Source: a virus
Lineage: Duplodnaviria; Heunggongvirae; Uroviricota; Caudoviricetes
IMG/VR virus record: IMGVR_UViG_3300024341_000001
Strand: one strand, 5' to 3'
Length of the DNA: 64,000 bases
Shown here: in pieces, positions 5,934-37,960 of the stretch
How the letters are laid out: the number at the start of each line of letters is the position of its first letter
Position numbering within the stretch: position 1 is the stretch's first letter
The notes under the pieces: generated by a model
The model's database searches: none
Seen by the model: only the letters and a program-made list of their open reading frames with translations
What the model was told of the DNA's origin: nothing
Program-made: the position numbers and the translations under genes

Positions 5934-7895
5934 ATGCCGACCACGCCGTACAGTGATCAATTAATAGGGGGCGGAGATGCCCAGGCGCTTGCGACAACTA
6001 GATTAATTTACCCTAATCCATTTTTAGATCTTAGTCGTTTCTTCATGCCTAGAACAGTTAAATCACTGTTCAAGCTCTGCCGTATCTTTTACTATCGTAA
6101 TGAATTTGTAAACAATGTTATAACTAAACTCGCAGAATATCCAGTAACGGATCTTCTAATTGAGGGTTTAGAAGATGAAAAATTACAAGCCGATTACAGC
6201 GAATTAATCGATCATAATATAAATCTAAAACGCCTATTAATTGAGATAGGACTTGATTATTTCACATATGGTAATTGTTTTGTATCAATTAATTTGAAAT
6301 TTCGCCGCTTCTTAGTATGTCCCAGTTGCGGTGAAAACCAACCTATAGAACGTGCAAAATATCAATGGAGAGATTTCTCATTCTATGGTGATTGCCCCCG
6401 CTGTGGTGCAAAGATGGTAATCTTTAAAGTTGATGATCGCACGTTAAAAAATTCAAAATACTTTAAATTCATTCGCTGGTCACCAGAGAATATCTCTATC
6501 GATCATGATGAGTTAACAGGTGAAAATAAATATTATTATGATATGCAACCAGGCACCAAAAAAGGTATCATAGATGGTAAGCGCGAAGTTATTGAACGCA
6601 CCCCTATGTTGTTTATCGAAGCTGTAAAACACAACCGTAAGATCATGCTCGACCCTACAAATCTTTATCATTTTAAACGGGCTACTCTAGCAGAAGAGGA
6701 TCAAGGATGGGGCAAACCACTTATCTTGTCTGCACTACCAATGCTTTGGTACACACAGACATTACGCCGTGGGAACGAAGCAATAGCCGCAGACCATTTA
6801 GTACCTATGCGTTCAGTTTTTCCAAGCAGCCAAGGTAATATCGACCCTTTTTCGCAGATGCATTTAGGTTCATGGCGCAGTCAAATCGAAGATAATCTTT
6901 CCAGATGGCGCCGAGATCCAAATCATATTGCGGTATTTCCTATACCGATTGGTTATCAAGGATTAAGTGGTGATGCAAAGATGTTACAAGTCACACCAGA
7001 GTTAAAATTCCTTGAGGAACTGATTATTAACTCATTTGGCGTACCGACGGAATTTATTAAAGGCGGCGCTACTTGGACTAGCAGCAGTGTAAGTTTACGT
7101 ATAGTCGAGAATCATTTCTTAACTTATCGTGAAGAACTTCATGATTTTCTGAACTATTTTGCAAGTCCTAAAATAGCGGCGTATCTTGGGTTTCCTCCGG
7201 TAAAATTTGTGTTAAAGAAATTCCGTATGAGCGACGATATTCAAACAAAAGAAACACTTATACAATTAGCACAACTAGGTAAAATCGCAGATTCATATTT
7301 ACAAACTGAATTTGGGCTGGATCCAAAAGAACAACGCAAATATCAGAAGATAGATAATAAGACTAATATTGATCTACAAATGGACCAAATGACTGCGCAG
7401 GCGGATATGCAAGGTAAATCACAAGTATTACTTGAGCGTTATCGTGCAAAAGCTATGGATGCTTTCTTAGAAGAACAGGCTCGTATACGCGAAAGTATGT
7501 TTGTTATTGAACTTAAACAGCAATTACAAGCTCCGGATCAAGACCCTAGTGATATATTGCAAAAATATACCGCGCAAATTGCGGGTATGGATCCTGTTTC
7601 ACAGCAGCAAGCTTTAGTAATGCTACAGCAAAAGGCTCCATTAGCATTTAGTTTCGTAATGCAACGACTGCAAGCTGTGTATGGCGGTACGCCGGAACAA
7701 CAGGCAGAATCGACTATGCGCGAACGCGAGATGGTGCATGAAAAAGAAATGGCCAGTGTTGAGCAAAAGCATGAAAAAGAAATGGCCGCACACGAAGAAG
7801 TAAAGATGCAGCATGAAATAAAAAAGATGGAACATGAAGAAAAAAGCTGGCCGCACAAAGAACGTATAAGCAAGGCTAAGAAAGAATCAAAATGA
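5934..7895 (+). CDS. large virion-associated-like protein; a portal-like assignment is tentative
   Basis: AAGGAAA RBS. 653 aa with a CxxC...CxxC zinc ribbon and a C-terminal HEKEM-repeat charged tail. The middle region loosely resembles a portal wing/clip. Confidence 0.3.
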   Translation: MPTTPYSDQLIGGGDAQALATTRLIYPNPFLDLSRFFMPRTVKSLFKLCRIFYYRNEFVNNVITKLAEYPVTDLLIEGLEDEKLQADYSELIDHNINLKRLLIEIGLDYFTYGNCFVSINLKFRRFLVCPSCGENQPIERAKYQWRDFSFYGDCPRCGAKMVIFKVDDRTLKNSKYFKFIRWSPENISIDHDELTGENKYYYDMQPGTKKGIIDGKREVIERTPMLFIEAVKHNRKIMLDPTNLYHFKRATLAEEDQGWGKPLILSALPMLWYTQTLRRGNEAIAADHLVPMRSVFPSSQGNIDPFSQMHLGSWRSQIEDNLSRWRRDPNHIAVFPIPIGYQGLSGDAKMLQVTPELKFLEELIINSFGVPTEFIKGGATWTSSSVSLRIVENHFLTYREELHDFLNYFASPKIAAYLGFPPVKFVLKKFRMSDDIQTKETLIQLAQLGKIADSYLQTEFGLDPKEQRKYQKIDNKTNIDLQMDQMTAQADMQGKSQVLLERYRAKAMDAFLEEQARIRESMFVIELKQQLQAPDQDPSDILQKYTAQIAGMDPVSQQQALVMLQQKAPLAFSFVMQRLQAVYGGTPEQQAESTMREREMVHEKEMASVEQKHEKEMAAHEEVKMQHEIKKMEHEEKSWPHKERISKAKKESK

Positions 7896-18867: not shown

Positions 18868-19845
18868 CTAAAGGGTATTTACCGTTTTTGCCGAATCGTA
18901 CTCTTGAATATTACTATTCAAGACGGCTCTTAAATCTGTTTTAATCTTTTCAATATCGTTATAAAAATCATATTCCCAAACTACTATATACTTATATCCT
19001 TTTGAAAGAAAGTATTTTTTCTTTCTAAAATCCTTCTCTATTGTGCACAGTTGTTTATTAGTTTTATCCGAGAAAAATCGATTATCTCCGTGCCAATACG
19101 ATCCGTGCATTTCCAAAATTATTTTTTTATCTATTAAAAAATCTAGTTGCCAACGATCAATTTTGACGTTATGTTCGAACGGAATTTTTAGTTCTTTTAA
19201 TATCTTCTTCATGTTCGCTTCCAACGAAGATGTATACTGAGGCAATGATAACAACTTCATACCGTATTTTTGAAGTTTATGATGTATACTTGCGGTACTT
19301 CGTCTCAATAAAATTGCCAGACTTTTTACATCTAGTCTTTTGTACCACTTTTTTAAAAGTGTTACATCTTTCTTCGACCACAAACAGTAAGTTTGATTTC
19401 GTTTCGGACCATTATTTTTGTGTAGATCTAAAGAATATGCGATTGTAGTTAATGCCGAAATGCTTTTATTTAACTGTAAAGATAATTCCCTATTCGGCAT
19501 GATTGCATAATTTTCTTTTAGAAACCACAGATCTTTTTCCGCCCATGCTATATTAGGTCTAGTTCTTTTTACAAGTTTAAATTTTCTAGCATATGCTGTT
19601 ATAGCAGCTTTTTTTCGCTTTAAAGCCTTGGTCAAAAAATTCCAGTTTCCATACTCATAATTTTCTTTAAGTATCTGTATATCTTTTTCAGACCATGTTT
19701 TATAGCTTCGAAGTTTTAGATTTTCGGCTTTATCTCGGATAGCCGTGTATGTTCGATTAAGTATTTTTGATAATTCTTTTGGTGTTTTACAATTATATTG
19801 ATCTTTTAGTATATTTAGTTCTTGTTCTGTCCAATGCTTTCCCAT
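18868..19845 (-). CDS. homing-endonuclease-like protein: Myb/SANT-like HTH repeats plus a C-terminal Vsr-like (PD-(D/E)xK) endonuclease domain
   Basis: Repeated W-x-E-x-L/I HTH modules. The C-terminus (ILEMHGSYWHGD...GYKYIVVWEYD) resembles Vsr (FVHGCFWHGH...GWRVLIVWE). Confidence 0.55.
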   Translation of the reverse strand: MGKHWTEQELNILKDQYNCKTPKELSKILNRTYTAIRDKAENLKLRSYKTWSEKDIQILKENYEYGNWNFLTKALKRKKAAITAYARKFKLVKRTRPNIAWAEKDLWFLKENYAIMPNRELSLQLNKSISALTTIAYSLDLHKNNGPKRNQTYCLWSKKDVTLLKKWYKRLDVKSLAILLRRSTASIHHKLQKYGMKLLSLPQYTSSLEANMKKILKELKIPFEHNVKIDRWQLDFLIDKKIILEMHGSYWHGDNRFFSDKTNKQLCTIEKDFRKKKYFLSKGYKYIVVWEYDFYNDIEKIKTDLRAVLNSNIQEYDSAKTVNTL

Positions 19846-20161: not shown

Positions 20162-21106
20162 TTAAGTCTTCACCGATTTTGCTGAATTATATTCCTTGAT
20201 GTCACCATCAAGTACGGCTTGTATGCCTTTAGCAACTCGTGAAAAATCTTCATTTATATCTTTTTCCCACAGGATAATTAGCCTATATCCTTTGGAACGT
20301 AATAACTTGTATTTACGACGGTCCTTTATTAATACTTTTCTCTGTTTTATGTTTATTGGTTTACGAAAAATACGTCTATCACAGTGCCAATAAGATCCGT
20401 TAGTTTCTATAATAACATCATTATCTAATAAAAAATCAACTCGATAAGAGGCAATACGTACTTGTACATTGAAGTGTATATTTTGAGAATTCAAATAAAT
20501 TTTTAAATCATTCTCAAGATAAGATGTATTATTTTGCGTCAACCCTAATCGCGTTAATTTATGATCTACGGCCGCCCTGGTTTTACCTAATATTTTTGCC
20601 AGCGCTGAATGTTTTATTTTGGTATAATTCTTTTTTAGAAACTTTACATCTGTTGTTGACCACCATTTTGTACCATGTAACCGCATTGTACGTGCTTTGG
20701 CGCTAACTGTCGAAAAACTTTTGTCCGGGAATTTAGCATGAAATGCTTTGAAGCCTCCGGTTCGATAAACTTTTCTTAGATGATCTGTTTCTTCTTTAGT
20801 CCAGCGTCGAAAATATAAGTGTAATTTTGTCGCTTTATTTTTTACTGACATAATTTCACGTTTTAATGTCTTCGCGATTTCAGCAGGACTCATTTTTAAA
20901 TGATTATCTATAAGAAACTGTACCTCGGGTGCTAACCATTTATTCTTTTTAAATATCCCCCATTGAAGCGCTCGGTTATTTAACGTCTTAGGCTTTACTC
21001 CTAAGCGTTTGGCTAAAACTTTAGTACTTGTAATAGGATATAATTTTTTAATTAAAGATTTTTCTTTTTCTGAGTAATAATAATTGTTCATATTAATAAT
21101 ATACAA
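20162..21106 (-). CDS. paralogous homing-endonuclease-like protein (HTH repeats plus Vsr-like nuclease)
   Basis: IIETNGSYWHCD...GYRLIILWEKD; clear paralog of 18868-19845. Confidence 0.55.
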   Translation of the reverse strand: MYIINMNNYYYSEKEKSLIKKLYPITSTKVLAKRLGVKPKTLNNRALQWGIFKKNKWLAPEVQFLIDNHLKMSPAEIAKTLKREIMSVKNKATKLHLYFRRWTKEETDHLRKVYRTGGFKAFHAKFPDKSFSTVSAKARTMRLHGTKWWSTTDVKFLKKNYTKIKHSALAKILGKTRAAVDHKLTRLGLTQNNTSYLENDLKIYLNSQNIHFNVQVRIASYRVDFLLDNDVIIETNGSYWHCDRRIFRKPINIKQRKVLIKDRRKYKLLRSKGYRLIILWEKDINEDFSRVAKGIQAVLDGDIKEYNSAKSVKT

Positions 21107-21115
21107 AATATTTTG

Positions 21116-22393
21116 CTAAAATGCAAAATTTTTACCGTTTTCAAAGTAGCTCGCCATGTCCAGCATTTGTTCGACATCAAACAAGTTATCTTTGAGGAAT
21201 TCGTTGGTGTGAAGTTTTTCCATCCGGTATCCAGATGAAAAATGTATAACATAAAAATCTCTTTTTTGTTCTCGCGCTATCTCTAATAGCGCCAATGCTA
21301 CAGATTTTGCCCAGATCTCTGGAAGACCTGACATGCTGCCACTTTCGTCCATACAAACAATAATAGGCCCGCGAGCTTTTTTCTCTTTACCGCGGATTTC
21401 ATATATCAGGGTTTTACCTTCAATAAAATCTGCCTTGAACATTTTCTTTGTCAAAGGATGTTTAAGTCTCATCCATTCTGCAGGAATCAATCTTCCTAGA
21501 TCCTTTCCTTGAGTAATAGAATGTTGTTCATCCATTCCTTGTTTTACTTTCTCGCGTTTTGTTTGTAGAGCAAGTCGACGATATCTTCCGGCCAATCTTG
21601 CGATTTGCTGTAGTTTTGCGCTGGATCTGAGTTTATTTAGTAATTCCATTTTCTGGTTAACAGGTTTCTTCGAGTAAGCTCCACTACGCTCGAGACCCCA
21701 ATTACTGATTATCTCCGATGTTTCGCGCACCGAATCTTTTACTTTGGAAGTGATTCTTTCAATACCTTGTTCGAATTTTCTATCTTCCATGGCCATCTGA
21801 AATTTTTTCATTGCTTCCTCATAAGCTTTCATAGCCTCTTCGAGGGTGAGTTTTTCAGACGTTTTACTTTTAACGTTGCCAGATCCGCCAGCTTCGGTAT
21901 CAGTCTCGGCCTCGCCATCGCCTTCTTCCTGTGCCGCATCAGTTAGATCTGCGGCAGCCTGTTGTAAGGCGCTTAGTGCTTCACGTTGTTCCTTTAACTC
22001 TTTTAGCCATTCCATGAGTTGTTGTGACATCACTTCGGTTCCCAGTGCGCTTGACAACTCATCAAGCCTGGTCATCACACGTAATTCTTCATATCGTGCG
22101 CTTTCCATCAATTTCTTTGCTATTTCGCGGTTGAGCATGAAGTCGGGCTTCATTTGCCATTCGTCTACAATTTCAGGTTCATTTTTATATAATGCATCAA
22201 ATGTATCTTGTAGTAATTCTGGAAATTGTGGGTAGTCTTTGACCCCAAGTTCTTCCGTATCTAGTAATTCTTTGCTTCGTTCTTTTATGTGCTTGAATTT
22301 TTCCAGATCGAATGAATCATGTGATATGGAGTATTTATCACCCTTACGTATCTTATCTAGTAAATTACGTGTTTTCTTATTTAAAGATATCAT
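21116..22393 (-). CDS. vWA domain protein (partner of the MoxR ATPase)
   Basis: C-terminal MIDAS motif IIVCMDESGSMSG. Confidence 0.6.
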   Translation of the reverse strand: MISLNKKTRNLLDKIRKGDKYSISHDSFDLEKFKHIKERSKELLDTEELGVKDYPQFPELLQDTFDALYKNEPEIVDEWQMKPDFMLNREIAKKLMESARYEELRVMTRLDELSSALGTEVMSQQLMEWLKELKEQREALSALQQAAADLTDAAQEEGDGEAETDTEAGGSGNVKSKTSEKLTLEEAMKAYEEAMKKFQMAMEDRKFEQGIERITSKVKDSVRETSEIISNWGLERSGAYSKKPVNQKMELLNKLRSSAKLQQIARLAGRYRRLALQTKREKVKQGMDEQHSITQGKDLGRLIPAEWMRLKHPLTKKMFKADFIEGKTLIYEIRGKEKKARGPIIVCMDESGSMSGLPEIWAKSVALALLEIAREQKRDFYVIHFSSGYRMEKLHTNEFLKDNLFDVEQMLDMASYFENGKNFAF

Positions 22394-23535
22394 GAATTAA
22401 GGACACCTAGTTCATCTACAAGAAGTTGTTTTTTGAAACTTTCGATTTCTTTTTCCACTGTCGCTATTTCATCCAATGAGGTACCTCTTTGTGCCATGAT
22501 ATTTTTTAACGTGGTAACTTCGGTTGTTGCGTCCTTTAGCTTATGGATTGCTTCCATAGCCTCACTGTGGCGTTCTTTTCCAGCTTTCTTGGCAAATACT
22601 TTCGAGTATGTTTCCCGACACATTTCCAAGATTTCAAGTATGCGTTTCTTTTCAGGCGCAATAATATCGAGTATTAAAGATTGTGCTTTTTTCTTCTGAT
22701 CAGGTATAGTCCAAACAATGTGTTTTAGTACTTCAAAGTCTGGTGTATCTATCTTTTTGCGACCGTTAAGCCATGCTTGCGCCTTTAGCAGTCCTATAAT
22801 AAGTTTATAAGTACGATCACTAACATGAAAAGACTCCATAAATAAGGTTTTTCGCATTTTAACATATAGCTGTTGCATTTCCGATGGAAATAAAATTTCC
22901 TTTACTTCACTTTGTGCCTTTATGATGTCTTCTTTGGTAACAGTATTTTTTGGAGGGGTATCTAAATCACTACCCAACATTCTAAGAAAGTTGCCTTCTT
23001 CTTTTATATATTCCACATGATACTTCAGTAAGAATCGATCGAAGAACGCATCAAGGTTATCATCTGAATCCGGTACTTCATTGGATGCACCGGCGATGGT
23101 AAACAAATTTAATTTGGTAGGGGTAATATCGTTATAAAATATTCGCTCATTGAGAATTGTCAACATTGAATTCAAAATACTACTGTTGGCCTTAAAAATT
23201 TCATCGATAAAAGCAGTATTGATTTCTGGATCACCTAATTTTCCATCCGTCACTCGTATATATCTATCGTCTTCGATGGCCTTAAATGATGGTGGACCAA
23301 ACATTTCTTCGGGAGTAGAGAATTTAGTTAGCAGCCGCTCAAAATACTTTGCGCCTGTAATTCTATAATTCCACTGTTTTATCAATGCAGATTTTGCCAC
23401 ACCTGCGGGGCCTAATAATAATACATTTGTTTTAGCTAAAGTAGCTAAAATAATTCCTCTTATGGGATCATTTCGTTCAACGAAGAGCCCATTCAACTCG
23501 CGTTCAACTTCTAAAAATTTTTCGTTTAAGTTCAT
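22390..23535 (-). CDS. MoxR-like AAA+ ATPase
   Basis: Walker A LLLGPAGVAKSALI; typical MoxR size and architecture; overlaps the downstream vWA gene. Confidence 0.6.
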   Translation of the reverse strand: MNLNEKFLEVERELNGLFVERNDPIRGIILATLAKTNVLLLGPAGVAKSALIKQWNYRITGAKYFERLLTKFSTPEEMFGPPSFKAIEDDRYIRVTDGKLGDPEINTAFIDEIFKANSSILNSMLTILNERIFYNDITPTKLNLFTIAGASNEVPDSDDNLDAFFDRFLLKYHVEYIKEEGNFLRMLGSDLDTPPKNTVTKEDIIKAQSEVKEILFPSEMQQLYVKMRKTLFMESFHVSDRTYKLIIGLLKAQAWLNGRKKIDTPDFEVLKHIVWTIPDQKKKAQSLILDIIAPEKKRILEILEMCRETYSKVFAKKAGKERHSEAMEAIHKLKDATTEVTTLKNIMAQRGTSLDEIATVEKEIESFKKQLLVDELGVLNS

Positions 23536-24074: not shown

Positions 24075-24112
24075 AGTAAAATGTCCTAAGACATTAAATC
24101 TTATACCAAAAA

Positions 24113-24303: not shown

Positions 24304-24723
24304 TTACGTCGTGGGATCTTTTGAGCCCGGTCCCAAAGGAGCTTTTTTGTCAGTAGAGCAAGCAGAATTAAAAATATCCTTCATAGGATTTACCTGAGCC
24401 CTTCCGTGTTGTGTGTTCTTTAAAAAAGCAACTATCAAGTCGGAAGTAATAGGTTTATTATTTTTATTCTTGTCATCTACATATTGTTCTATGTTGGTTA
24501 ATGCCCAACTAAACGTAGCCGCAGATTTATAAGCTTCTTGTTGTTTGATCGCGTCACGTATCTTAATAATACGCCTTGCAAGTTCCGCATAATTAATTAT
24601 TGCTCCGCAATCTTTAAAACATCCAGCTATACATTCCCGCGTCAATTTGCTGTCCCCTTTTTCACAGACAAGATCAACCCACTCATCTATAGTCTTGGGG
24701 ACGTTATTAGTGGATTCAGCCAT
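24304..24723 (-). CDS. hypothetical protein
   Basis: ORF only. Confidence 0.4.
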   Translation of the reverse strand: MAESTNNVPKTIDEWVDLVCEKGDSKLTRECIAGCFKDCGAIINYAELARRIIKIRDAIKQQEAYKSAATFSWALTNIEQYVDDKNKNNKPITSDLIVAFLKNTQHGRAQVNPMKDIFNSACSTDKKAPLGPGSKDPTT

Positions 24724-24780
24724 TTATCACCTTGCTTTCGTAATTACCGTATAGTTCTCACATATTCTTATACCAAAAGA

Positions 24781-24809
24781 CTTGATTTTGTTTTATATAT
24801 ATATTATAA
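24781..24809 (+). promoter_or_regulatory. strong sigma70-like promoter TTGATT-N17-TATAAT for the RNAP gene
   Basis: Consensus hexamers with exact 17-nt spacing, followed by AGGAG and an ATG 20 nt downstream. Confidence 0.55.
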
Positions 24810-24829
24810 TATACTATTAGGAGAATATT

Positions 24830-27800
24830 ATGCCATTATCCATACCAGTACATGCTGAATCACGTGGTAGCGCAGAAAACAAACTGAATCCGGCGCGTCA
24901 AAATGAATTCATTCAAAATGCTTTACAACAATCTATAAAAAGACAATTTCCTGTTATCGGCACACATCATACCTTGGAACTAATCGGATCGCCAAAGATA
25001 AAAGATGTGCTGGACGACCGGGATTTACCAGCCCAAAAAGAGACTAAGTTACTTGGAAAAACCTGGCAAATACCTGTTTATGCTTCGTTCCGTTTGCGAG
25101 ATAATCAAACAAACATGATTATAGATGAAATAAAAGATATGAAGATAGCAAATATTCCAAAACTTACCGACAGATTTTCAATGATCATAGGTGGTAACGA
25201 ATATACTACTATAAATCAATTTCGTCTAAAGCCCGGAGTTTATACACGACAAAAAGAAAATGGTGAAATGGAATCGTTCTTTAATCTTGCTGTCGGTTAT
25301 AATTTTAAAATGGAATTGGATCCGGCTGAAGGTGTATTTTATCTTTATGTAGCAAAACAACGTTTTCATCTTTATACATTATTAAATGCCTTAGGTACTA
25401 CGCAGCAAGAAATGATAAAGGCGTGGGGGCAAGAGCTGTTTGACAAAAACAAGGCGGCGGGAATAAATGAAGCAGAAAAAGAAATACCGTTATTATATGA
25501 GAAATTAAGACGGCAACGATTAGGATATAACGAAGCGTTAGAAAATATACGTACATATTTTGACGATACTAGAATGGATCCGGAGGTAACAAAAATAACA
25601 TTAGGTGATTCGTATGATCGAGTATCACCGACCGCCCTACTGGCCAGCGCAACTAAATTATTAAAAGTTATGAAAGGTGAGACTCCTGAAGATGAGCGTG
25701 ATTCATTGTTGTTTAAACAATTATACACGGTAGACGAACAATTAGAAGAATACTTTTCTAAAACAACAAAGGATGTAGTCAAAAATTTGCGTTATCGCAC
25801 AGATAATAAAAAGAACATACGAGAAATTATTTCTACTGATACTTATACGGAACCAATACGAAAATTTTTCACAACAGGTGACTTGAGTAATCCTTCTCCT
25901 CAAACTAATCCAGTGGAGATGGCCTCGGAATGGAGAAAGACAACCGTAACCGGTACTGGTGCCATACAATCCGAACATTCAATAACTTTTAAAACACGTG
26001 ATGTACATCCAACGCATCTAGGATATTTAGATCCATTGCATACTCCCGAAGGTCATAAAGTCGGCGTTACTTTAAGTCTAGGATTAGGAGTAAGAAAACG
26101 CGGTAAAGATTTAACTACTACTATCATAATGCCAAATGGCACACAGAAAGAAGTTACTCCAATCGAGTTTTATGACATGAAAATTGGATATCCGGATCAA
26201 CATGAAAAAGGGAGAGCTCAGCACGATCAAATAAAAATAATGTATCGCGGGCAAGTCGATGAAGTGCCAAAATCGGAAGTAGATGCTTACTTGCTTGATC
26301 CAACATCTATGTTTGGCTGGACAACAAATTTAATACCATTTCTGGGCACAAATTCAGGAAACCGCGCTGCAGTTGCGGCAAAAATGGCAAGTCAGGCGGT
26401 ACCATTAAAAAATGCAGAAAGCCCATTAGTAAAAGTACAGGCTCCGAGCGGGCGTACAATGGACGAAATACTTGGTATGATCGCCACTACAAGAATCAGG
26501 GATGATGTGGGCAAAGGCGTAGTTACTGCTGTAGATAAAGATTACATTACTATAAAAACAGATGCAGGTGAAAAACATAAAATTGGTTTATATAATGATT
26601 TTCCGCTTAACCAAGATAGTTTCTTACAATCGACCCCGCTAGTAAAGCCAGGAGATCGTATAAAACCTTTTGATGTACTGGCAAAAAATAATTTTACAGA
26701 TGCATCTGGTAATTATGCTTATGGCATCAATGCTACTGTGGCTTATATGCCATGGTATGGATATAATTTTGAAGACGGTATAGTTGTGACCGAATCATTA
26801 GCCAATAAATTAACATCAACAGTAATATTAAAGAAAAGTCTGCAAACAAGCGCGACCGGTATATTAGATAAACAAAAATTTGTTTCGTATTTTCCAGAAA
26901 AAATTAACAACATAAACCTTGCAAAACTTGATGAAACTGGTGTAATAAAAGAGGGTGAACGCGTTCTCCCAGGCGAGGTACTGATAGCATATCTTTCTCG
27001 CGTGGAATTGACGGATACCGAAAAAATATTAAAACAGATGCACAAAGTAATATCTAATCCATATCGTGATCGTTCTTTAATATGGGATGGAGAACATGAA
27101 GGCATTATAAAATATGTTCGTAGAATAGGTAATTCTATTATAGTGTGGATTTATGAAGAACAACCTTTAGTCGTTGGTGACAAATTAGCTGCACGTTATG
27201 GAGACAAAGGTATAGTAACAAAAATTATATCAGATGACGAAGCTCCATATACAAAAGATGGCACACGTATAGATATTTTATTCAACCCTCATGGTGTAGT
27301 GGGTCGTATGAATATGGGTCAGATGCTTGAGACCGCTGCAGGAAAAATAGCTTATAAAACTGGGAAACCATATATTGTAAAAAACTTCTCTGGCGAAGAT
27401 TACTTAAAGAATATTATAGGGGAACTGAAAAATAATAAGATCCCCGCCGAAGAAATTTTATACACCAAAGATGGCAAACCGATGACAAAGGCCCCTGTAT
27501 TCTGGGGTGTAAAATATTATCTCAAACTATTACACATAGTAGAGCATAAATTTAAGAGTCGTGATATCCCTGGAACATATGATGCAAACGAACAACCTGC
27601 AAAGGGAGAAGAGGGTGGGCAATCAATAGATCCTCTACAAACATACGCATTACTGGCGCACGGTGCCAGACAGAATTTATTTGAATTTGCGGCGGTGAAA
27701 TCTCAGAAAAACGATGAGTACTGGCGTAATCTTCAATTAGGCTTTCCTCCACCAAGGCCGCAAAAAAACTTTGTATTCGATAAAATGTTATCATATATGA

Positions 27801-30800
27801 AGGCTGCCGGTATTAATGTATCTAAAAATGGTTACAAAATGAAGTTATTTCCGGCTACGACAAAAGACGTTTTGACGTGGAGTTCTGGAGAAATAAAAGA
27901 TGCGGGACATATGTTGCGTGGAAAAGATCTCGCAGAAATAGAAGGAGGTCTTTTTGATCCAAAGTTAACTGGTGGTGGACTAAAAGGTACAAATTGGAAT
28001 CATATGCTATTAGCTGAACCTATGCCCAATCCTATATTTGAATCAGCTATACAATCATTAATAGGATTAAATGGTCGACAATATGATCAGGTTATGAGAG
28101 AAGAGCTACAAATCGACGGCTTAACTGGAACAAAATTAATACATAAGTTACTAAGAAATATAGATGTGCCCAAAGAGCTGTTAAAAACTCGCAAAGCCCT
28201 ACAGACCGCGGGGCCGACTCAAGTAAATATGTTAAATAAAAGAGTTAGATATTTACAAGTGCTTAAAGATTTTAAGTTGGCTCCAGAAGAAGCTTACATT
28301 ATGAAGGCTATCCCAGTGTTGCCCCCGATTTTCAGACCGATCTATCCATTACCATCGGGAGATTTACAGGTATCGCCTGTAAATAAGCATTACCATAATA
28401 TTTCACTTATAAATAATCAGCTGAAGGAAATTAAAAAATCTGGTGTTGACCCTACAGAATTTAACAAAACCAACCGCGTTGCTTTATATCAAGGCCTGCG
28501 CGCGCTGGATGGGTTAATTGATCCAATAACCTATACTCGTGAAAAATATGAAGGATTGTTAAAGACGTTGGCGGGAGATTCTCCAAAAGAAGGTTTCATA
28601 CAGAATAAAGTTTGGGGCCGTCGACAAGATTTATCTGCGCGATCAACAGTAACTGTAGAACCATCTATAGGTATCGATCAGATCGGTTTACCTGAACCAA
28701 TGCTTCGTAGTATTATGAAGCCATTTGTTATACGTGAATTAGTTCGACAGGGCTATAAACCGATAGAAGCGATAAAACAATATCGAGAATGGTCTCCTAT
28801 CGCGGATCAAGCTTTAAATGTAGTAATAAAAGAACGTCCGGTATTAATGAATCGTGCACCTTCATTACATAAACATAATGTGCAAGCTTTTTATCCGGAA
28901 CGTTTTGACGGTATGAGTATCCGAGTCAATCCATTAATTGTAAAAGGATTAAATATGGACTTCGATGGAGATACTGCAAGCATACATGTTCCGGTATCAG
29001 AGGCAGCAGTAAATGAAGCCAAAGATATGTTGCCAAGTAAAAATCTACATAAAGCAGGTGATAAAGAACATATGCATCAGCTGAGTCAGGATTATCAGCT
29101 TGGATTATATTTTTTAACAGTTCCAGGTAAAAATACTCGTAGAACATTTAAAACAGCAAAGGATGCATTACGTGCTGGATTAGATATGCAAGATCAATTT
29201 ATAATGCATGGTAAAACTATAACGCTAGGAAAATTACTAGTTAATAGCGCCCTACCAAAAGAATTGCAGGATTATAAACAAGAATTTGATTCTAAATATG
29301 TAAAAAATCTAATTGACGTGTTGTACAAAAATCATCCTAACGAATTTGGAAAAATTATGGATCATTTTAAAAACGTTGGAAGACAATATGCCATAGATCG
29401 TGGAAGCACCCTTTCAATAACAGATTTAGCTATTGATCGCTCATTTAGAGATAGAATATTAAATAAGTACGAGAAACAAATTACTTCTAAAACACCTGCG
29501 GAAAAGCGTATAGAATTATATATGGCCGCAAAAAAAGAAATACAGCACGAACAAGATAAGGAATTAAAAGATAAAAATAGATTCTATGATATGCTACGAA
29601 GTGGAAGTACTAATAAAGCTGGGCAAATAACACAAATATTATCAATGCCTGGTGTAGTAGAAGACGTTCACGGTAATCCTATTCCATTTCCGATAAAAAA
29701 ATCGTGGTCAGAAGGAGTAGATACGTTCGATTATTGGAATCAATCTTATGGCGCTAGAAAAGGCGTTGTAGATAAATCTATCAATACTCAGGAAAGCGGT
29801 GGACTAAATAAAGAGTTGTTATTCAATACCAAAAACTTATTAGTAGTAGAAGATGATTGCGGCACACCAGAATATATAGAAATAGCTATTGACAGTAAAG
29901 AAATATTTGACAGATATTTGGCAAAAACAATTGGTGGTGTAGGTGTACGTAATGAATTAGTTGATGTAGATTTAATTAACAAGGCAAGACGTAAAAAGAT
30001 TGAGTTACTTCCGGTACGTTCTCCTTTATTGTGTGAATCGGATGGCGGTGTATGCATTAAATGTTATGGACTAATGGCCAACGGAACCCCGCCACGTATC
30101 GGCGAAAATGTTGGTATATTAGACGCAGAAGCTATCACCGAGCGTTCCACACAACTAACATTGCAGACATTTCATACAGGCGGAGTAGCTGGTACTAAAG
30201 GAGGTATTTTGGCCGGATTCCCTCGTTTGAAGGAATTATTATATGTTCCTCAAACCGTCGTAGATAAAGCAGTGTTAGCAGAAGAGGCGGGAATTGTAAA
30301 ATCTATTTTACCGAATCCAGCCGGCGGTCATGATTTGTATATTCAAGACAAACGATATTATATACCACACGGATTGACAATTAAAGTTTCTGTTGGGCAA
30401 ACTATAAAGAAGGGTGATGCACTAACCATGGGTAGTATAAAACCGCAAGAGCTTTCGCAATTAAAGGATCATTTGACAGCGCAATTATACACGGCCGATG
30501 AAATAAACAATATATATGATAAAAAGTTTGCACGAAAATCAATCGAGACGGTAATAAGAGGAACTAGTAATTTTGCAGAAATAACTGATATACCGACCGA
30601 TACTCCAGTAACCTGGCTACGTGGTGATACAGTACCTGTTACAGCGGTGAAAAAAATAAACCGTGAATTGGCTTTAAATGGAAAACCATTAATAGCATAT
30701 ACACCATTCTTCAAAAGTATTGATGTCTTGCCATTGGAGTCAGAAGATTGGTTAAGTCGCTTAACAACCAACAGATTAAAACAAACCATTCAGGAGGGGG

Positions 30801-30910
30801 CTGCGATGGGTTACGAAACTAATTTAAAAGGCACGGATCCAATGCCGGCTTATTTACAAGGTACCTCTTTCGGACAAGAACTAGATCCTGAAAAGAAGCA
30901 ATTTTATTAA
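24830..30910 (+). CDS. single-chain multisubunit-type RNA polymerase: fused beta (N-terminal) and beta-prime (C-terminal) modules
   Basis: Beta motifs: GYNFEDGIVV, GDKLAARYGDKGIVTKI, DILFNPHGVVGRMNMGQMLE, YYLKLLHIVEHKF. Beta-prime motifs: AIPVLPPIFRPIYPL, RQDLSARSTVTV, NRAPSLHKHNVQAF, and the catalytic NMDFDGD. The beta-prime zinc-finger cysteines appear absent. Confidence 0.85.
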   Translation: MPLSIPVHAESRGSAENKLNPARQNEFIQNALQQSIKRQFPVIGTHHTLELIGSPKIKDVLDDRDLPAQKETKLLGKTWQIPVYASFRLRDNQTNMIIDEIKDMKIANIPKLTDRFSMIIGGNEYTTINQFRLKPGVYTRQKENGEMESFFNLAVGYNFKMELDPAEGVFYLYVAKQRFHLYTLLNALGTTQQEMIKAWGQELFDKNKAAGINEAEKEIPLLYEKLRRQRLGYNEALENIRTYFDDTRMDPEVTKITLGDSYDRVSPTALLASATKLLKVMKGETPEDERDSLLFKQLYTVDEQLEEYFSKTTKDVVKNLRYRTDNKKNIREIISTDTYTEPIRKFFTTGDLSNPSPQTNPVEMASEWRKTTVTGTGAIQSEHSITFKTRDVHPTHLGYLDPLHTPEGHKVGVTLSLGLGVRKRGKDLTTTIIMPNGTQKEVTPIEFYDMKIGYPDQHEKGRAQHDQIKIMYRGQVDEVPKSEVDAYLLDPTSMFGWTTNLIPFLGTNSGNRAAVAAKMASQAVPLKNAESPLVKVQAPSGRTMDEILGMIATTRIRDDVGKGVVTAVDKDYITIKTDAGEKHKIGLYNDFPLNQDSFLQSTPLVKPGDRIKPFDVLAKNNFTDASGNYAYGINATVAYMPWYGYNFEDGIVVTESLANKLTSTVILKKSLQTSATGILDKQKFVSYFPEKINNINLAKLDETGVIKEGERVLPGEVLIAYLSRVELTDTEKILKQMHKVISNPYRDRSLIWDGEHEGIIKYVRRIGNSIIVWIYEEQPLVVGDKLAARYGDKGIVTKIISDDEAPYTKDGTRIDILFNPHGVVGRMNMGQMLETAAGKIAYKTGKPYIVKNFSGEDYLKNIIGELKNNKIPAEEILYTKDGKPMTKAPVFWGVKYYLKLLHIVEHKFKSRDIPGTYDANEQPAKGEEGGQSIDPLQTYALLAHGARQNLFEFAAVKSQKNDEYWRNLQLGFPPPRPQKNFVFDKMLSYMKAAGINVSKNGYKMKLFPATTKDVLTWSSGEIKDAGHMLRGKDLAEIEGGLFDPKLTGGGLKGTNWNHMLLAEPMPNPIFESAIQSLIGLNGRQYDQVMREELQIDGLTGTKLIHKLLRNIDVPKELLKTRKALQTAGPTQVNMLNKRVRYLQVLKDFKLAPEEAYIMKAIPVLPPIFRPIYPLPSGDLQVSPVNKHYHNISLINNQLKEIKKSGVDPTEFNKTNRVALYQGLRALDGLIDPITYTREKYEGLLKTLAGDSPKEGFIQNKVWGRRQDLSARSTVTVEPSIGIDQIGLPEPMLRSIMKPFVIRELVRQGYKPIEAIKQYREWSPIADQALNVVIKERPVLMNRAPSLHKHNVQAFYPERFDGMSIRVNPLIVKGLNMDFDGDTASIHVPVSEAAVNEAKDMLPSKNLHKAGDKEHMHQLSQDYQLGLYFLTVPGKNTRRTFKTAKDALRAGLDMQDQFIMHGKTITLGKLLVNSALPKELQDYKQEFDSKYVKNLIDVLYKNHPNEFGKIMDHFKNVGRQYAIDRGSTLSITDLAIDRSFRDRILNKYEKQITSKTPAEKRIELYMAAKKEIQHEQDKELKDKNRFYDMLRSGSTNKAGQITQILSMPGVVEDVHGNPIPFPIKKSWSEGVDTFDYWNQSYGARKGVVDKSINTQESGGLNKELLFNTKNLLVVEDDCGTPEYIEIAIDSKEIFDRYLAKTIGGVGVRNELVDVDLINKARRKKIELLPVRSPLLCESDGGVCIKCYGLMANGTPPRIGENVGILDAEAITERSTQLTLQTFHTGGVAGTKGGILAGFPRLKELLYVPQTVVDKAVLAEEAGIVKSILPNPAGGHDLYIQDKRYYIPHGLTIKVSVGQTIKKGDALTMGSIKPQELSQLKDHLTAQLYTADEINNIYDKKFARKSIETVIRGTSNFAEITDIPTDTPVTWLRGDTVPVTAVKKINRELALNGKPLIAYTPFFKSIDVLPLESEDWLSRLTTNRLKQTIQEGAAMGYETNLKGTDPMPAYLQGTSFGQELDPEKKQFY

Positions 30911-30915
30911 GATAA

Positions 30916-30948
30916 TAAAAAAAAATAGGGTACAACGTACCCTATTTT
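30916..30948. terminator. bidirectional rho-independent terminator
   Basis: A8-TAGGGTAC-aac-GTACCCTA-TTTTA between convergent genes. Confidence 0.6.
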
Positions 30949-31420
30949 AATCTAGTGGAGCCCCTAACCTAAATGTCTTAATTAAGACAACGTGGAACCC
31001 CATTATATTTTGAATCTTAAAATAACTATTGATACTATTTGACAATTTTCCGACAATTTCATATCGATCACCAAGTAGAAAAAAATGTTTGGCTCCTTTA
31101 ATTAGATCGATAGAAAGTCTATTATTTAAGACATCGTCAATATGAAATTCTGTTGGAAATTGTTCTATCTCATTGGGACTTATTACAAAACGCGCTAAAA
31201 AATTAAAATCTGGTTCTGTTGTTAACAGTTGCGTAGATGTCAAAGTTTTAGCATCATGTTCAGAGTGTCCTTGACTTAGTATATCCGGTGTACCACGTGT
31301 AATATTTGCCCAATCTAATAACCAGTAATTTATTTTATCTGTGCATGTTGCCATACAATATCTAAGGCCAATGCAGTTCCTTTTCTGGGCCCCAAAGCAG
31401 TGACCTTTAAATTTTTCCAC
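30947..31420 (-). CDS. hypothetical protein
   Basis: ORF only. Confidence 0.35.
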   Translation of the reverse strand: MEKFKGHCFGAQKRNCIGLRYCMATCTDKINYWLLDWANITRGTPDILSQGHSEHDAKTLTSTQLLTTEPDFNFLARFVISPNEIEQFPTEFHIDDVLNNRLSIDLIKGAKHFFLLGDRYEIVGKLSNSINSYFKIQNIMGFHVVLIKTFRLGAPLD

Positions 31421-32301
31421 TCGGGTTCGCCGCTGACTTTTTTCTCACCGATATTTAATTCTTTGGTGTCTACGTAATTATATACATTTAAGTCAGAGTT
31501 ATAAATATTTGAGTTGCAAATTGTTATAAAGTGCTTTGTTGTGTTTTTGATTTTACGTGCAATAATCACACGAACCACGTTTGGACGAAATTCAAATAAC
31601 TGCTGTGCTATAAGATCGTCTGCGCCATAGCGATCGGTTTTTGATCGAATAAGTACAGAACGGTCATTTTCATGTAATATATCATACTTCAATTCATCGG
31701 GATAAGTACGAAGCACCGGCTCGATATTATCGAAATCTTTTACAACTGCCTCTGTAAGATCCAGAAGAGATAATTCGCATAACTCAGTTCGAGATTTCCC
31801 GACATAATCGTAGAAAGGATATGGATGTATTTTTAATAAATAATTTAAGAGTCTTGGATTGCTGGTTTTTACAAAATTGTATCTATTCGCAGTCCATTCG
31901 TTTAATTCAGTTAATAATGCTGATAATTTTGTTCCGGATAACAGTAATTTTTGTCTGTGTTTCTTATCCATTAATGCCAAAGCTATTGCATCATCTACTG
32001 TGACATCAAACACCGGTCTATATACATAATTAGGATCCCAATCAGGTAATTGTTTTACAAAATTATACACCTGCATTGCAACTGAAGTAGTTGAATTACG
32101 TTGATCCTGCTTTAGTAGCCTGGGTATACCAAAAACTACCACGCCTTTAGAATGTATAATACGATGTTCGGGTACGCCGGGTTGCATCGAGATCGTCTGG
32201 TTATCTTCCTTTAAATGGATTCCAATACCAGCGTCCCCGGGTTGTAGAATGAATTGTGAACCTGCTGCTAATTCACGTACGTCAAATAAAAACAGTTTCA
32301 T
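31330..32301 (-). CDS. hypothetical protein
   Basis: Immediately downstream of the Clp ATPase gene. Confidence 0.4.
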   Translation of the reverse strand: MKLFLFDVRELAAGSQFILQPGDAGIGIHLKEDNQTISMQPGVPEHRIIHSKGVVVFGIPRLLKQDQRNSTTSVAMQVYNFVKQLPDWDPNYVYRPVFDVTVDDAIALALMDKKHRQKLLLSGTKLSALLTELNEWTANRYNFVKTSNPRLLNYLLKIHPYPFYDYVGKSRTELCELSLLDLTEAVVKDFDNIEPVLRTYPDELKYDILHENDRSVLIRSKTDRYGADDLIAQQLFEFRPNVVRVIIARKIKNTTKHFITICNSNIYNSDLNVYNYVDTKELNIGEKKVSGEPEWKNLKVTALGPRKGTALALDIVWQHAQIK

Positions 32302-34481
32302 TATATTTCCTGTTCTTTTACTATAATTTGTGGTGTAACTTTAATCGTGTCTTCAACAACAGCTGCATCGAATAAATCTAGTTCCGGAGAATCTATTAAT
32401 AGATCAGCTATTGGGGATTCGATTTTATTTTGTACAAGTCTGCGTAGAGGACGAGCTCCATATTCCTTAGAATAGCCATTAGCAACTAGATAATCAGTTG
32501 CTTCTGGGGATAAAATTACTTGTACACTCATTTGTTTTAAATATAACTCTAAAATTTTCTTTACAGCCTCTTGAGATAAATCATTATAATGTACTATCTC
32601 ATCGATTCTGTTCAAAAATTCTGGACGAAAATGGGTTTTTAACGCTTCGTTGCGTTTTGCGTCTTTGGACTTTTTATCATTATCGTTGCTAAATCCGAGT
32701 TTAGATTTAGCTGCTTCTACCGTACCTATATTAGAGGTCATTAGAAGAATTGTATTTTTAAAGTTAACATTTTTTCCACGTCCATCTGTTAAAATACCGT
32801 CGTCAAAAACTTGTAGAAACACGTTAAACACATCATGGTGTGCTTTTTCCACTTCATCTAACAATACAATAGAATATGGTTTTTGTCGCACGCGTTCAGT
32901 TAATTGGCCGCCTTCATCATAACCAACATAGCCAGGAGGTGATCCTATTAATTTAGATATAGAATGAGCTTCAGACAGTTCACTCATATCCACACGTAGC
33001 AAAGCATCTTCGGAATCAAATAAACATTTAGCAAGTTGTTTTGCTGTCTCTGTCTTACCAACACCAGTTGGACCTAGTAGTAACGCACTGAATGGTTTTT
33101 TTACATTTTGTACGCCTGTTCGTGCGCGTTTGACTGCTTTTACTAACATAGCTATTGCTTCTTCTTGCCCAACAACAACTTTATTTAGATTGCTTTCCAA
33201 ATCCTTTAAGCGATCCCGTTCCGATTGCCCGATAGAAGTCATCGGTACGCCAGTCATCGTAGATACCACTTTACGTACTGTCTCTTCAGTAACTTCGGAT
33301 TGTTCAGATATGTGCGCAACACTACCTGCTTCATCAAATATATCAATAGCTTTATCAGGTAAATATCTGTCAGTGATATAACGATCGCTGAGATTAACAA
33401 TCATGTTGGTTAATCCTTCAGCATATTTTACTTTATGATATTCCTCGTAAAGCGGTGTTATTTGATTTAAAATAGTTATAGTTTCTTCTATTGTAGGTGG
33501 ATTTACAGTGAGTTTTTGAAATCGACGTTCAAGCGCCGGATCGCGTTCAATATACTTACGATAATCATCGTACGTAGTTGAACCAATACACTGTATTTCG
33601 CCGCGTGCTAACGCAGGTTTAAGCATGTTAGCCGCATCTCCGGTACCTTCGGGTCCACCTGATCCAATCAAAGTATGAACTTCGTCTATAAAAACTATTA
33701 TATCTTTATTCTTTTGAAGTTCGTCAATAACGGCTTTTAGTCTTTCCTCAAATTGACCTCTCAGCTTAGTGCCCTCCACGATAGATGCCATATTTAAAGA
33801 GACAATGCGCTTTCCCTGCAACGAGTGGGCTACTTCGCCTTTTGCCAATTTTAAAGCTAGCCCCTCGACAATCGCAGATTTTCCGACCCCCGGCTCACCG
33901 ACAAGAATAGGATTATTCTTCTTACGACGCCCTAAAATTTCCGTTATACGATTTATTTCCTTCATCCTATTTACTACCGGATCAAGTTTTGCCTCTGATG
34001 CAAGTTTTGTTAAATCGATGGAAAATGCGTCTAATGCGGGTGTTGCATTATCAGTGGGCTCAGCATTAGTTTTAGGCTCGGTTGTTGAAACATTGGTACG
34101 CACATTAAATCCGTGTCGTTCCAATACTAATTGTGCTGTACAACCAGCTTGCGCCGCTAGCGCAAGTAAAAAATCTTTGCTGTCTGCATTAGCAAAACGT
34201 CGTAACTGTAGTAAAGCCTGTGAAACTGGTTTAGATAACAAGATGTTACCTTCTACCGTCACTGAAGATGAGTTCTGATTAATTATCTTTCTAAGAGCAA
34301 TCTGCAAGGTTGGCACAGATAGCTGTTTCGCTAAAAAACTATAGCCAGCTGTTTTTAGTTGTATAATGGCTAAGAGAATGTGTTCACTCTCTATTGTTGG
34401 ATTACCAGCATCAATTGCTAATTCTCTTGCTAAATGTAAAGAATTAGCAATATCTGCTGAATATGGATTTTGTTGATCCAT
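32301..34481 (-). CDS. ClpA/ClpB-family AAA+ chaperone ATPase (ClpA-like, two AAA modules)
   Basis: N-terminal Clp repeat, Walker A1 LVGEPGVGKSAI, Walker A2 LLLGPTGVGKTETAK, and sensor/arginine-finger regions. Confidence 0.8.
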   Translation of the reverse strand: MDQQNPYSADIANSLHLARELAIDAGNPTIESEHILLAIIQLKTAGYSFLAKQLSVPTLQIALRKIINQNSSSVTVEGNILLSKPVSQALLQLRRFANADSKDFLLALAAQAGCTAQLVLERHGFNVRTNVSTTEPKTNAEPTDNATPALDAFSIDLTKLASEAKLDPVVNRMKEINRITEILGRRKKNNPILVGEPGVGKSAIVEGLALKLAKGEVAHSLQGKRIVSLNMASIVEGTKLRGQFEERLKAVIDELQKNKDIIVFIDEVHTLIGSGGPEGTGDAANMLKPALARGEIQCIGSTTYDDYRKYIERDPALERRFQKLTVNPPTIEETITILNQITPLYEEYHKVKYAEGLTNMIVNLSDRYITDRYLPDKAIDIFDEAGSVAHISEQSEVTEETVRKVVSTMTGVPMTSIGQSERDRLKDLESNLNKVVVGQEEAIAMLVKAVKRARTGVQNVKKPFSALLLGPTGVGKTETAKQLAKCLFDSEDALLRVDMSELSEAHSISKLIGSPPGYVGYDEGGQLTERVRQKPYSIVLLDEVEKAHHDVFNVFLQVFDDGILTDGRGKNVNFKNTILLMTSNIGTVEAAKSKLGFSNDNDKKSKDAKRNEALKTHFRPEFLNRIDEIVHYNDLSQEAVKKILELYLKQMSVQVILSPEATDYLVANGYSKEYGARPLRRLVQNKIESPIADLLIDSPELDLFDAAVVEDTIKVTPQIIVKEQEI

Positions 34482-37943: not shown

Positions 37944-37960
37944 ATGCTCTTATACCACAT

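Follow-up and report, generated by a model that had tools for sequence, protein, structure and literature searches.

The window analysed here is a 64,000-nt stretch of a Caudoviricetes virus genome (IMG/VR record IMGVR_UViG_3300024341_000001), and it carries a single gene (24830..30910, + strand) in which homologues of both catalytic subunits of bacterial RNA polymerase (RNAP), beta and then beta', form one chain of 2026 amino acids (aa). Our best explanation as a whole, to which we assign a probability of roughly 0.6, is that this protein is the single-chain core of a phage-lineage polymerase, that the core probably depends on a sigma factor, that its gene ancestrally belonged to the head module, and that it is possibly delivered in the virion. 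We are most confident of the first part: trimmed beta, four joining residues and trimmed beta' very probably make a working polymerase core, as the predicted active-site, bridge-helix, trigger-loop and clamp elements are all intact.

The gene is a complete open reading frame (ORF), with an ATG start, zero internal stops over 2026 codons, and a stop codon. In a Pfam search, the first half of the protein matches RNA_pol_Rpb2_3 (aa 357-417) and Rpb2_6 (aa 563-926, E=5e-61), and the second half matches Rpb1_1, Rpb1_2 (E=1e-24), Rpb1_3, Rpb1_4 and Rpb1_5, across aa 1116-1812. The Rpb2 domains precede the Rpb1 domains within the ORF, which therefore encodes beta and beta' homologues in one chain and in that order. 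This fusion had been proposed in an earlier note made from the sequence, and the uninterrupted ORF, the domain order and the alignments to E. coli RpoB and RpoC all bear it out. The same note allowed that a frameshift might have joined what are really two genes. However, the identical 2026-aa protein was called on 12 contigs (seven of them 0.2-1 Mb long), and two places with the identical protein, among the matches listed, come from separate sequencing runs (SRR35384740 and SRR7617220), so a frameshift or assembly artefact is excluded.

The chain is 26% shorter than the E. coli pair (1342+1407 = 2749 aa), close to the figure of about 25% first put forward for bacterial subunits, but only about 15% shorter than the B. 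subtilis pair (1193+1199 aa). The gap to E. coli exists mostly because lineage-specific inserts are missing, not because core domains were lost, and the protein is, as far as sequence can tell, a minimal core and not a degenerate one. In searches of solved structures, the beta' half best matched the compact beta' subunits of B. subtilis and C. difficile (E about 1e-100). The beta half matched bacterial beta (E about 1e-82), with aa 71-978 aligning nearly end to end with an 1100-aa cyanobacterial beta.

Residue-level anatomy was read from MAFFT alignments to E. coli RpoB and RpoC. The beta-homologous part spans aa 1-997 (24830..27820, +) and ends in ...AAGINV, with V997 as its last residue. It has the catalytic GDKLAARYGDKG at aa 783-794, aligned with E. 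coli K1065/K1073, and keeps the flap-tip helix (LTDTEKILKQM, aa 727-737), while the E. coli inserts i4, i9 and i11 are absent. In the rifampicin pocket, E. coli Q513, F514, D516, H526 and S531 are replaced by N, P, P, E and T, which suggests that the fused enzyme would be insensitive to rifampicin. The fusion junction is only S998-K-N-G1001 (27821..27832, +), measured in the alignments from the last beta residue to the first beta'-homologous residue. Homology to beta' begins at Y1002, which corresponds to E. coli beta' residue ~17, and continues over aa 1002-2026 (27833..30907, +). This part keeps the clamp helices, the lid/rudder, switch 2, NMDFDGD (aa 1375-1381), the bridge helix and the trigger loop (with H1782), and is missing the trigger-loop insert SI3.

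The most distinctive change in the beta' part is at the N-terminal zinc-binding domain (ZBD), a four-Cys domain that is, to our knowledge, universal in bacterial beta'. In place of this roughly 31-residue domain, the fused protein has a bypass, GGLFDPKLTGGGLKGTNWNH (aa 1039-1058; 27944..28003, +). The alignment gap covers E. coli residues about 65-95, including C70/C72/C85/C88, and is bridged by T1047-W1056 with no Cys. A second beta' zinc site is kept (C1677, C1735, C1742 and C1745, equivalent to E. coli C814, C888, C895 and C898). The earlier claim that the beta' zinc finger is lacking thus holds for the ZBD but not for beta' as a whole.

Structure prediction had been proposed as a check, and we made an AlphaFold model of aa 900-1300, using an alignment of 15 relatives. 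The beta' clamp region was predicted with a pLDDT (AlphaFold's per-residue confidence score) of 80-93, and the ZBD bypass within it with a pLDDT of 85-89. The junction was modelled as two short strands forming a short beta-hairpin (pLDDT about 61-84). The excised C-terminal piece of beta was modelled poorly, as expected out of context. A Foldseek search with this model returned bacterial beta' chains (E about 1e-13), in agreement with the assignment.

The fused protein belongs to a large family. A word-indexed search found 448 homologues at E <= 1e-10, and among the matches listed, more than 100 clusters are 2000-2200 aa long, with an identical Pfam set and 31-81% identity. In an alignment of 56 relatives (32-81% identity), the junction is conserved and gap-free, the ZBD bypass is the family-wide consensus, G1001, P1008, D1377, D1379, D1381, H1782, K785 and K793 do not vary, and at least 90% have G994. 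An exhaustive search with an 851-aa junction-spanning query, taking one representative per 50%-identity cluster, gave at least 150 cluster representatives. All 150 have E <= 1e-166, and nearly all match through the junction as one chain. By length, 65 of them are plain fusions, 60 have intein-sized inserts, 19 are of 1300-1949 aa and six are fragments, and just one of the 150 has a CxC...CxxC pattern at the ZBD position. The description of the gene as unusual was therefore overstated with respect to frequency, since the metagenomic family is very large, but it stands in the sense that the fused form is undescribed in the literature we searched.

The inserts deserve a remark of their own. They are 250-660 aa long, occur in about 40% of representatives, and contain Pfam intein, LAGLIDADG or Hom_end domains. 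A family protein can have up to three or four such inserts, the longest protein reaches 3719 aa, and the insert-bearing members lie among P0006-P0111 and P0199-P0335 of our set. There are four hot-spots, at window-protein aa ~407, ~788, ~1381-1390 and ~1774-1783, and these coincide with the most conserved catalytic motifs, i.e., beta HTPEG, beta GDK..GDKG, beta' NMDFDGD (the commonest site) and the trigger loop. The window copy of the gene is intein-free.

Several results place this family in phages. The earlier description of the genome as phage-like is supported by the content of the window (a portal, holin/amidase, homing endonucleases, a primase-like protein and many accessory genes, with one tRNA and no rRNA), by the large terminase found in relatives, and by the near-absence of the gene from cellular genomes. 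Relatives are encoded on at least 394 IMG/VR viral stretches, and of the 80 best nearly all are full-length, with contigs reaching 208 kb. Among 185,579 prokaryotic species genomes (one per species), the sole true family member was on a 204-kb contig in a Bacteroidales metagenome-assembled genome (MAG), and the remaining matches were normal adjacent rpoB-rpoC genes at 27-31% identity. No near-identical DNA was found among GenBank phages.

The beta and beta' catalytic blocks supplied 564 conserved columns for a neighbour-joining tree, with 16 diverse bacteria and 200 bootstraps. All phage sequences fell apart from the 16 bacteria in 200/200 bootstraps, while a group of only the fully fused forms was monophyletic in just 4/200. 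Over these blocks, identity to the bacterial enzymes is 34% for the window protein, whereas the bacteria average 64% among themselves. The clade and the phage gene context together contradict the possibility that the genome is really bacterial, e.g., from an endosymbiont. As judged by these sequence comparisons, the fused RNAP is shown to be an ancient phage lineage and not a recent capture from a host, with the caveat that the tree comes from a simple distance method, has long branches and gives no divergence date.

Among GenBank phages, the protein is best matched, with 28-30% identity, by Salmonella phage Arash (181 kb) and by three Vibrio phages of 186-188 kb (D69, D181 and D148). In Arash/D69-type phages, a ~1525-aa gene encodes beta together with beta' up to the equivalent of about window aa 1449, and the remainder of beta' is in a separate gene of about 609 aa. 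Arash gp206 and D69_0261 nevertheless have the same beta/beta' junction as the window protein, and like it they have the ZBD deleted and replaced by a T-GGxxG..W.H bypass. These split forms nest in the fused family, and therefore the common ancestor was already fused and without the beta' ZBD, with beta' split later in some branches (Arash, D69). These RNAPs are annotated 'beta subunit' or 'hypothetical', and the Arash paper is silent on the fusion (PMC10585845).

The next part of our explanation is that the enzyme needs a sigma-family initiation factor, which we consider probable, with considerable room for doubt. The two main sigma docking sites of a bacterial core, the beta' clamp helices and the beta flap-tip helix, can both be aligned to E. 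coli, and the fused protein is predicted to have kept them for that role. Sigma genes also occur beside the fused gene in related loci. In L064, a sigma gene lies 3.7 kb upstream of the fused RNAP gene on the same strand, and in L184 one lies 5.1 kb upstream, again on the RNAP strand, followed by eight small genes and then a 1992-aa fused RNAP gene. The lineage sigma is ~222 aa long with Pfam Sigma70_r3, and Arash and D69-type phages have orthologous sigmas located elsewhere in the genome. Because sigma genes are linked to the fused gene in related clades, sigma dependence is supported for the lineage. For the phage in the window, the factor may be encoded elsewhere in the ~215-kb genome or may be a host sigma.

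The arrangement in these two loci may be worth attention for another reason. In L184 (10001-20669) and L064 (5584-16000), the sigma gene, about eight small unannotated same-strand genes and the fused RNAP gene make up a possible 'transcription cassette', and the small genes between sigma and RNAP may include further factors.

The remaining part concerns where and when the enzyme acts. In 61/83 related loci, the RNAP gene is preceded on its own strand by a portal homologue, with a median gap of about 1.3 kb, and Arash has the order portal, small ORF, RNAP. Downstream, most related loci have conserved genes in the same orientation (about 413, 668 and 305 aa), followed by the large terminase. With the portal upstream and terminase downstream in relatives, the ancestral position of the RNAP gene was therefore inside the head/packaging module. 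The Arash virion proteome is relevant here: Gp206 (the fusion of beta with N-terminal beta', annotated 'beta') had the most spectra, and Gp216 (the C-terminal part of beta') and Gp10 (the sigma factor) were also detected (PMC10585845). We suggest that phages of this lineage express the enzyme together with their head genes and carry it in the virion, and that it starts transcription in the next host. For the lineage we regard this as an even bet, and for the phage in the window as slightly less than that.

In the window, this ancestral arrangement is disrupted. Between the portal gene (5934..7895, +; phrog_16240, E=5.5e-12) and the RNAP gene lie about 17 kb of genes on the opposite strand, and the order is broken in the closest relatives too. 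That block contains a reverse transcriptase (RVT_1, phrog_2825 'polymerase'; 16549-17565, -) and two free-standing homing-endonuclease-like genes (HNH/D5-like N-terminal domain families; 18868-19845 and 20162-21106, both -). It fits a mobile or rearranged insertion, with which the homing endonucleases are consistent. Reverse transcriptase homologues also lie close to the RNAP gene in 12 related loci.

The RNAP gene of the window appears to have its own expression signals. A consensus scan found a sigma70-type promoter-like site directly upstream (24782..24823, +), with a -35 TTGATT at 24782-24787, a 17-nt spacer and a -10 TATAAT at 24805-24810, and the sequence has a ribosome-binding site AGGAG at 24819-24823 (+). 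In relatives with 52-81% identity (L007, L008, L009, L010 and L013), TTGA in the -35 and TAT.AT in the -10 are invariant while the spacers have diverged. Only three other intergenic TTGAYT-17-TATAWT sites lie near gene starts, one of them before the primase-like gene. A bulk sigma70 promoter scan of the window gave 71 sites vs 76 +/- 10 expected, i.e., no enrichment. The earlier note's view of a genome driven by host-type sigma70 promoters thus fails in bulk but is upheld at the RNAP gene itself. Downstream, between the RNAP gene and a convergent gene, there is a strong hairpin terminator with A-run/T-run flanks that is bidirectional in form (30922..30948; terminator scan: 12-pair stem, 3-nt loop, T-tail). 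The anatomy shows the RNAP gene of this phage as a monocistronic unit that has moved out of the portal-terminase block, with its own conserved sigma70-type promoter and its own terminator.

A second, different motif stands out. The GGTATAAGA box has 7 copies in the window vs 0.59 +/- 0.74 expected, and the motif scan placed all of them on the - strand (10685-10693, 10818-10826, 24099-24107, 24766-24774, 37948-37956, 42398-42406 and 63432-63440). The copy nearest the RNAP gene (24766..24774, -; TCTTATACC on the + strand) is 7 nt upstream of the -35 hexamer, faces the divergent gene 24304-24723(-), and is kept in relatives, with its order relative to the -35/-10 pair varying in distant ones. Most opposite-strand units carry the motif. 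Copies in the window are mostly intergenic, and several come after a terminator hairpin and T-run and before - strand genes. Across the 83 loci, 45 copies are on the strand opposite the RNAP gene and 2 are on the RNAP strand. For the 8-mer of the box, 63/87 copies are intergenic, and in 45/62 classified intergenic copies a leftward gene lies to the left, with the divergent context most enriched. The box is probably a phage-specific promoter or regulatory element, although its orientation to genes is not fully consistent. Mapping a conserved late promoter motif had been suggested, and the outcome is a motif which is enriched and one-sided but whose promoter role is that of a candidate only. That GGTATAAGA boxes heading the opposite-strand operons are promoters read by this polymerase is speculative, and we hold it with clearly less than even confidence.

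Several observations weigh against the explanation as a whole. The partner-subunit search covered the 64-kb window and ~14 kb of flanks. Pfam found no sigma, alpha or omega domains in window ORFs of >=70 aa, a profile of 78 phage sigmas found no sigma in the window, and precomputed Pfam annotations of the flanks (about 10 kb right, 3.7 kb left) included no sigma, alpha or omega. The Arash/L064-type sigma is limited to a sub-clade, appearing in 4 IMG/VR contigs in peptide-pattern scans, and scans crossing sigma-bearing with RNAP-bearing IMG/VR contigs gave 4 contigs each time. The key E. coli sigma-contact residue beta' R275 is Ile in the fused protein. The conserved downstream packaging block and terminase were not found in the window, and the RNAP gene is here outside the head module. 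Its promoter is of a class common to the primase-like gene, which fits better with early expression by host RNAP than with late expression and packaging. The Arash authors allow for carry-over of abundant proteins as well as packaging for early transcription, and metabolic enzymes were likewise detected in the Arash virion preparation (PMC10585845). Lastly, 17/62 intergenic GGTATAAGA copies are without a leftward gene, as judged from crude gene calls.

Individual sigma candidates were also tried and rejected. The weak hits of the 78-sigma profile in the window were spurious, being MoxR ATPase orthologues. A phmmer search of the window with the Arash sigma gave no significant match, so the window has no detectable orthologue of the sigma that accompanies the Arash/D69 RNAP; the best-scoring ORF (36653-37123) reached E=0.14 and has no sigma domain. 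The small neighbouring ORFs at 24304-24723, 30947-31354 and 31330-32301 were considered as cryptic sigmas and have no sigma-family Pfam match. In the 83 related loci, 24304-24723 has no homologues and 31330-32301 has them in only 5. The suggested search for alpha, omega and sigma genes was therefore negative in the window and its flanks, and positive for sigma beside the fused gene in L064 and L184.

One alternative is a T7-style cascade without packaging, in which host RNAP and its primary sigma transcribe the fused gene early and the phage enzyme, with some further factor, takes over middle and late genes, e.g., from GGTATAAGA. We see this as a real possibility, short of an even chance. It would account for the conserved -35/-10 promoter directly upstream, the same class of site before the primase-like gene, a monocistronic gene with its own terminator and non-structural neighbours (in the window it is a lone + strand gene among opposite-strand genes), and the presence of a second, distinct and highly enriched motif. 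It sits less well with the family-wide position between portal and terminase on the same strand and with the Arash homologue yielding the most spectra in virion preparations (PMC10585845), and a phage enzyme with a sigma70-family factor could itself read a -35/-10 promoter. Alternatively, the fused chain could be a replacement core that uses host sigmas, and possibly host alpha and omega, with no phage factor at all. The empty partner search, the kept clamp helices and flap tip, and the sigma70-type promoter would all follow, but the partner search covered only about one-third of the genome, and related clades have their own sigma beside the gene. Moreover, even the most conserved blocks share only 34% identity with bacterial enzymes, R275 is not kept, and the protein lacks the ZBD, a contributor to holoenzyme and promoter contacts. 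We therefore consider a replacement core unlikely.

Two further alternatives question the single chain itself. The ORF product could be cleaved after translation, e.g., by a prohead or ClpP-like protease, into beta-like and beta'-like pieces that form an ordinary two-subunit core. ClpP- and ClpB-like proteins are indeed encoded in the window, and some relatives are naturally in pieces, e.g., the split beta' of Arash. Arash peptides were, however, reported under a single intact fusion product, Gp206 (PMC10585845). In addition, where relatives are naturally split, the break falls near aa 1449, away from the beta/beta' boundary, and the junction is only four residues, conserved and modelled as a tight hairpin and not an exposed linker, all of which makes cleavage very improbable. 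Finally, the gene could be an artefact or a misassignment, i.e., joined genes or a bacterial/endosymbiont fragment with a Helicobacter/Wolbachia-type rpoBC. Fused rpoBC does exist in a few bacteria, and MAG names (Bacteroidales and Brocadiales) are attached to two members of the family. Against this are the identical ORF on 12 contigs, with two of its places, among the matches listed, in different runs, the junction conserved in >=150 diverse clusters, the phage genes with no rRNA and one tRNA, the phage clade in 200/200 bootstraps, and bacterial genomes that give 27-31% identity and separate genes; we give this alternative almost no weight.

A phage-lineage single-chain core, probably used with a sigma, is thus the reading that we prefer. 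Its most ambitious extension would be a minimal holoenzyme: one ~230-kDa chain plus a small phage sigma, with no alpha, omega or ZBD, that is packaged, injected, and reads one-element GGTATAAGA promoters independently of the host. We think this doubtful in its full form. If true, it would be the first virion RNA polymerase to depend on a sigma, and no natural transcription system of bacterial type would be smaller.

Other genes in the window concern RNA, proteins and NAD, and their functions are assigned from domain matches. An Ro60 orthologue (TROVE and Ro60 vWA domains; 39031-40821, -) lies downstream of a genuine tRNA-Ala (Rfam; 42078-42151, -), with about 1.6 kb of mostly non-coding DNA between them. 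Bacterial Ro60 is usually accompanied by Y-RNA-like RNAs; near this Ro60 gene, Rfam at the gathering threshold found the tRNA only, and no Y-RNA-like or other RNAs. An RNA-repair gene set (43734-44594, 44582-45298, 46303-47376 and 54475-55566, all -) comprises a polynucleotide kinase/phosphatase (AAA_33 and HAD_PNKP), an RlaP nucleotidyltransferase and two RNA ligases, one T4 Rnl1-like and the other with PHA02142 OB-fold and RNA_ligase domains. Together with Ro60, this set suggests a heavy investment against host defences that cleave tRNA or other RNA.

A protein-remodelling toolkit of some size is formed by a ClpB-like double-AAA+ chaperone (32301-34481), a ClpP-like protease (53868-54482), a MoxR-type ATPase (22390-23535) and a vWA protein (50439-51104), all on the - strand, and two window ORFs match bpMoxR. 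A protein that combines a PARP catalytic domain with a weak WGR domain (60726-61964, -) is encoded beside an NAD synthase (59068-59916, -), and a NUDIX protein and other NAD-related genes are also neighbours; an NAD/ADP-ribosylation module for host takeover or counter-defence is possible. Lastly, an 826-aa protein (11262-13742, -) has an MVP_shoulder domain (the shoulder of the major vault protein) and a faint Vault_3 match. MVP_shoulder is a eukaryote-typical domain and unexpected in a phage.

Bacterial RNAP is normally made of five subunits and is assembled on an alpha-dimer platform. A natural and widespread one-chain catalytic core therefore helps to define what a bacterial-type polymerase can do without. 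This one lacks the lineage inserts and the ZBD, and the window has no gene that can be recognised as alpha or omega. The diversity of the family (>=150 clusters at 50% identity, with catalytic motifs heavily colonised by inteins) adds to its interest, and the fused gene is a useful marker for a large and barely cultured phage lineage, to which it ties the 'orphan' cultured phages Arash and D69. If a small dedicated sigma suffices, the enzyme would offer a tractable minimal model for initiation and termination and a possible orthogonal transcription module for synthetic biology.

Among known systems, the natural RpoB-RpoC fusions of Helicobacter and Wolbachia likewise have beta then beta' in one polypeptide, and they show that tethering the beta C-terminus to the beta' N-terminus works in a bacterial enzyme. 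They are, however, housekeeping enzymes of full bacterial size, with the ZBD present, and act with alpha, omega and host sigmas, while the window gene is phage-borne, ZBD-less and about 34% identical to bacteria in conserved blocks.

A close phage system is the mReC lineage of Weinheimer & Aylward 2020, Caudovirales that encode a multi-subunit RNAP (PMC7481178). Like the present family, these are uncultured tailed phages, some over 200 kb, with RNAP among phage hallmark genes; their beta and beta' were found by ordinary bacterial profiles, have an NADxDGD motif and form a deep branch apart from all bacteria, and in one of two sets the subunits are compact, with beta of about 1000 aa and beta' of about 900 aa (PMC7481178). 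Set against the mReC definition (a beta and a beta' profile match of >=800 aa each, and NADxDGD), the window protein has Pfam domains over ~1000 aa each, NMDFDGD and a phage context. The difference, as judged from the published table, is that every listed mReC entry is two separate proteins whereas the window has a single ORF, and in the paper 'fused' is used only for crAssphage (PMC7481178). The terminases also differ: the example from this family is PF05876/phrog_675, and those mReC terminases with a Pfam hit are PF03237 (PMC7481178). Several mReC contigs have two beta/beta' sets, of about 1365 + 1005 aa and about 1000 + 900 aa (PMC7481178 Supplementary Data 2). These recall the virion/non-virion pairs of phiKZ-like phages, a likeness that draws no comment in the passages of the paper that were searched (PMC7481178).

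Descriptions of a fully fused phage form were not found in the literature searched, beyond mReC and Arash; no later work building on the mReC paper turned up either, and the Jug-phage paper uses RpoC only as a marker. Overviews of phage multisubunit RNAPs from 2020 and 2021 cover only the split phiKZ/AR9 enzymes and YonO (PMC7598289, PMC7824862). The sequences are public, and some members already have the automatic Joint Genome Institute (JGI) name 'beta subunit/beta' subunit'. PHROG families annotated as RNA polymerase beta subunit give partial matches to the window protein, at 1e-28 or weaker. The single-chain ZBD-less form, the size of the family, its portal-terminase position and its tie to Arash/D69 are thus undescribed in the literature searched.

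The packaged phage polymerases provide the remaining comparisons. The crAss-like virion RNAP (gp66-type) is one very large chain with both catalytic barrels and is packaged, and crAss-like phage RNAP is reported to have no recognisable match to beta and beta' profiles (PMC7481178). Unlike that enzyme, the window protein gives hits to seven Pfam families of beta and beta', with 5e-61 as the best E-value. The phiKZ/AR9-type RNAPs are two-barrel, beta/beta'-related enzymes with no alpha or omega, and one version travels in the virion to carry out early transcription (PMC7598289, PMC7824862). Each is divided among 4-5 polypeptides, has diverged much further, and works with a factor that is not a sigma (gp68/gp226), in phages without sigma genes (PMC7598289, PMC7824862). 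The window RNAP shows the opposite trend: one chain, a clear bacterial-type sequence, and sigma genes in related clades. If a small dedicated sigma does suffice, this lineage would have taken a route to host-independent transcription unlike those of phiKZ/AR9, the crAss-type enzymes and the single-subunit polymerases of T7 and N4.

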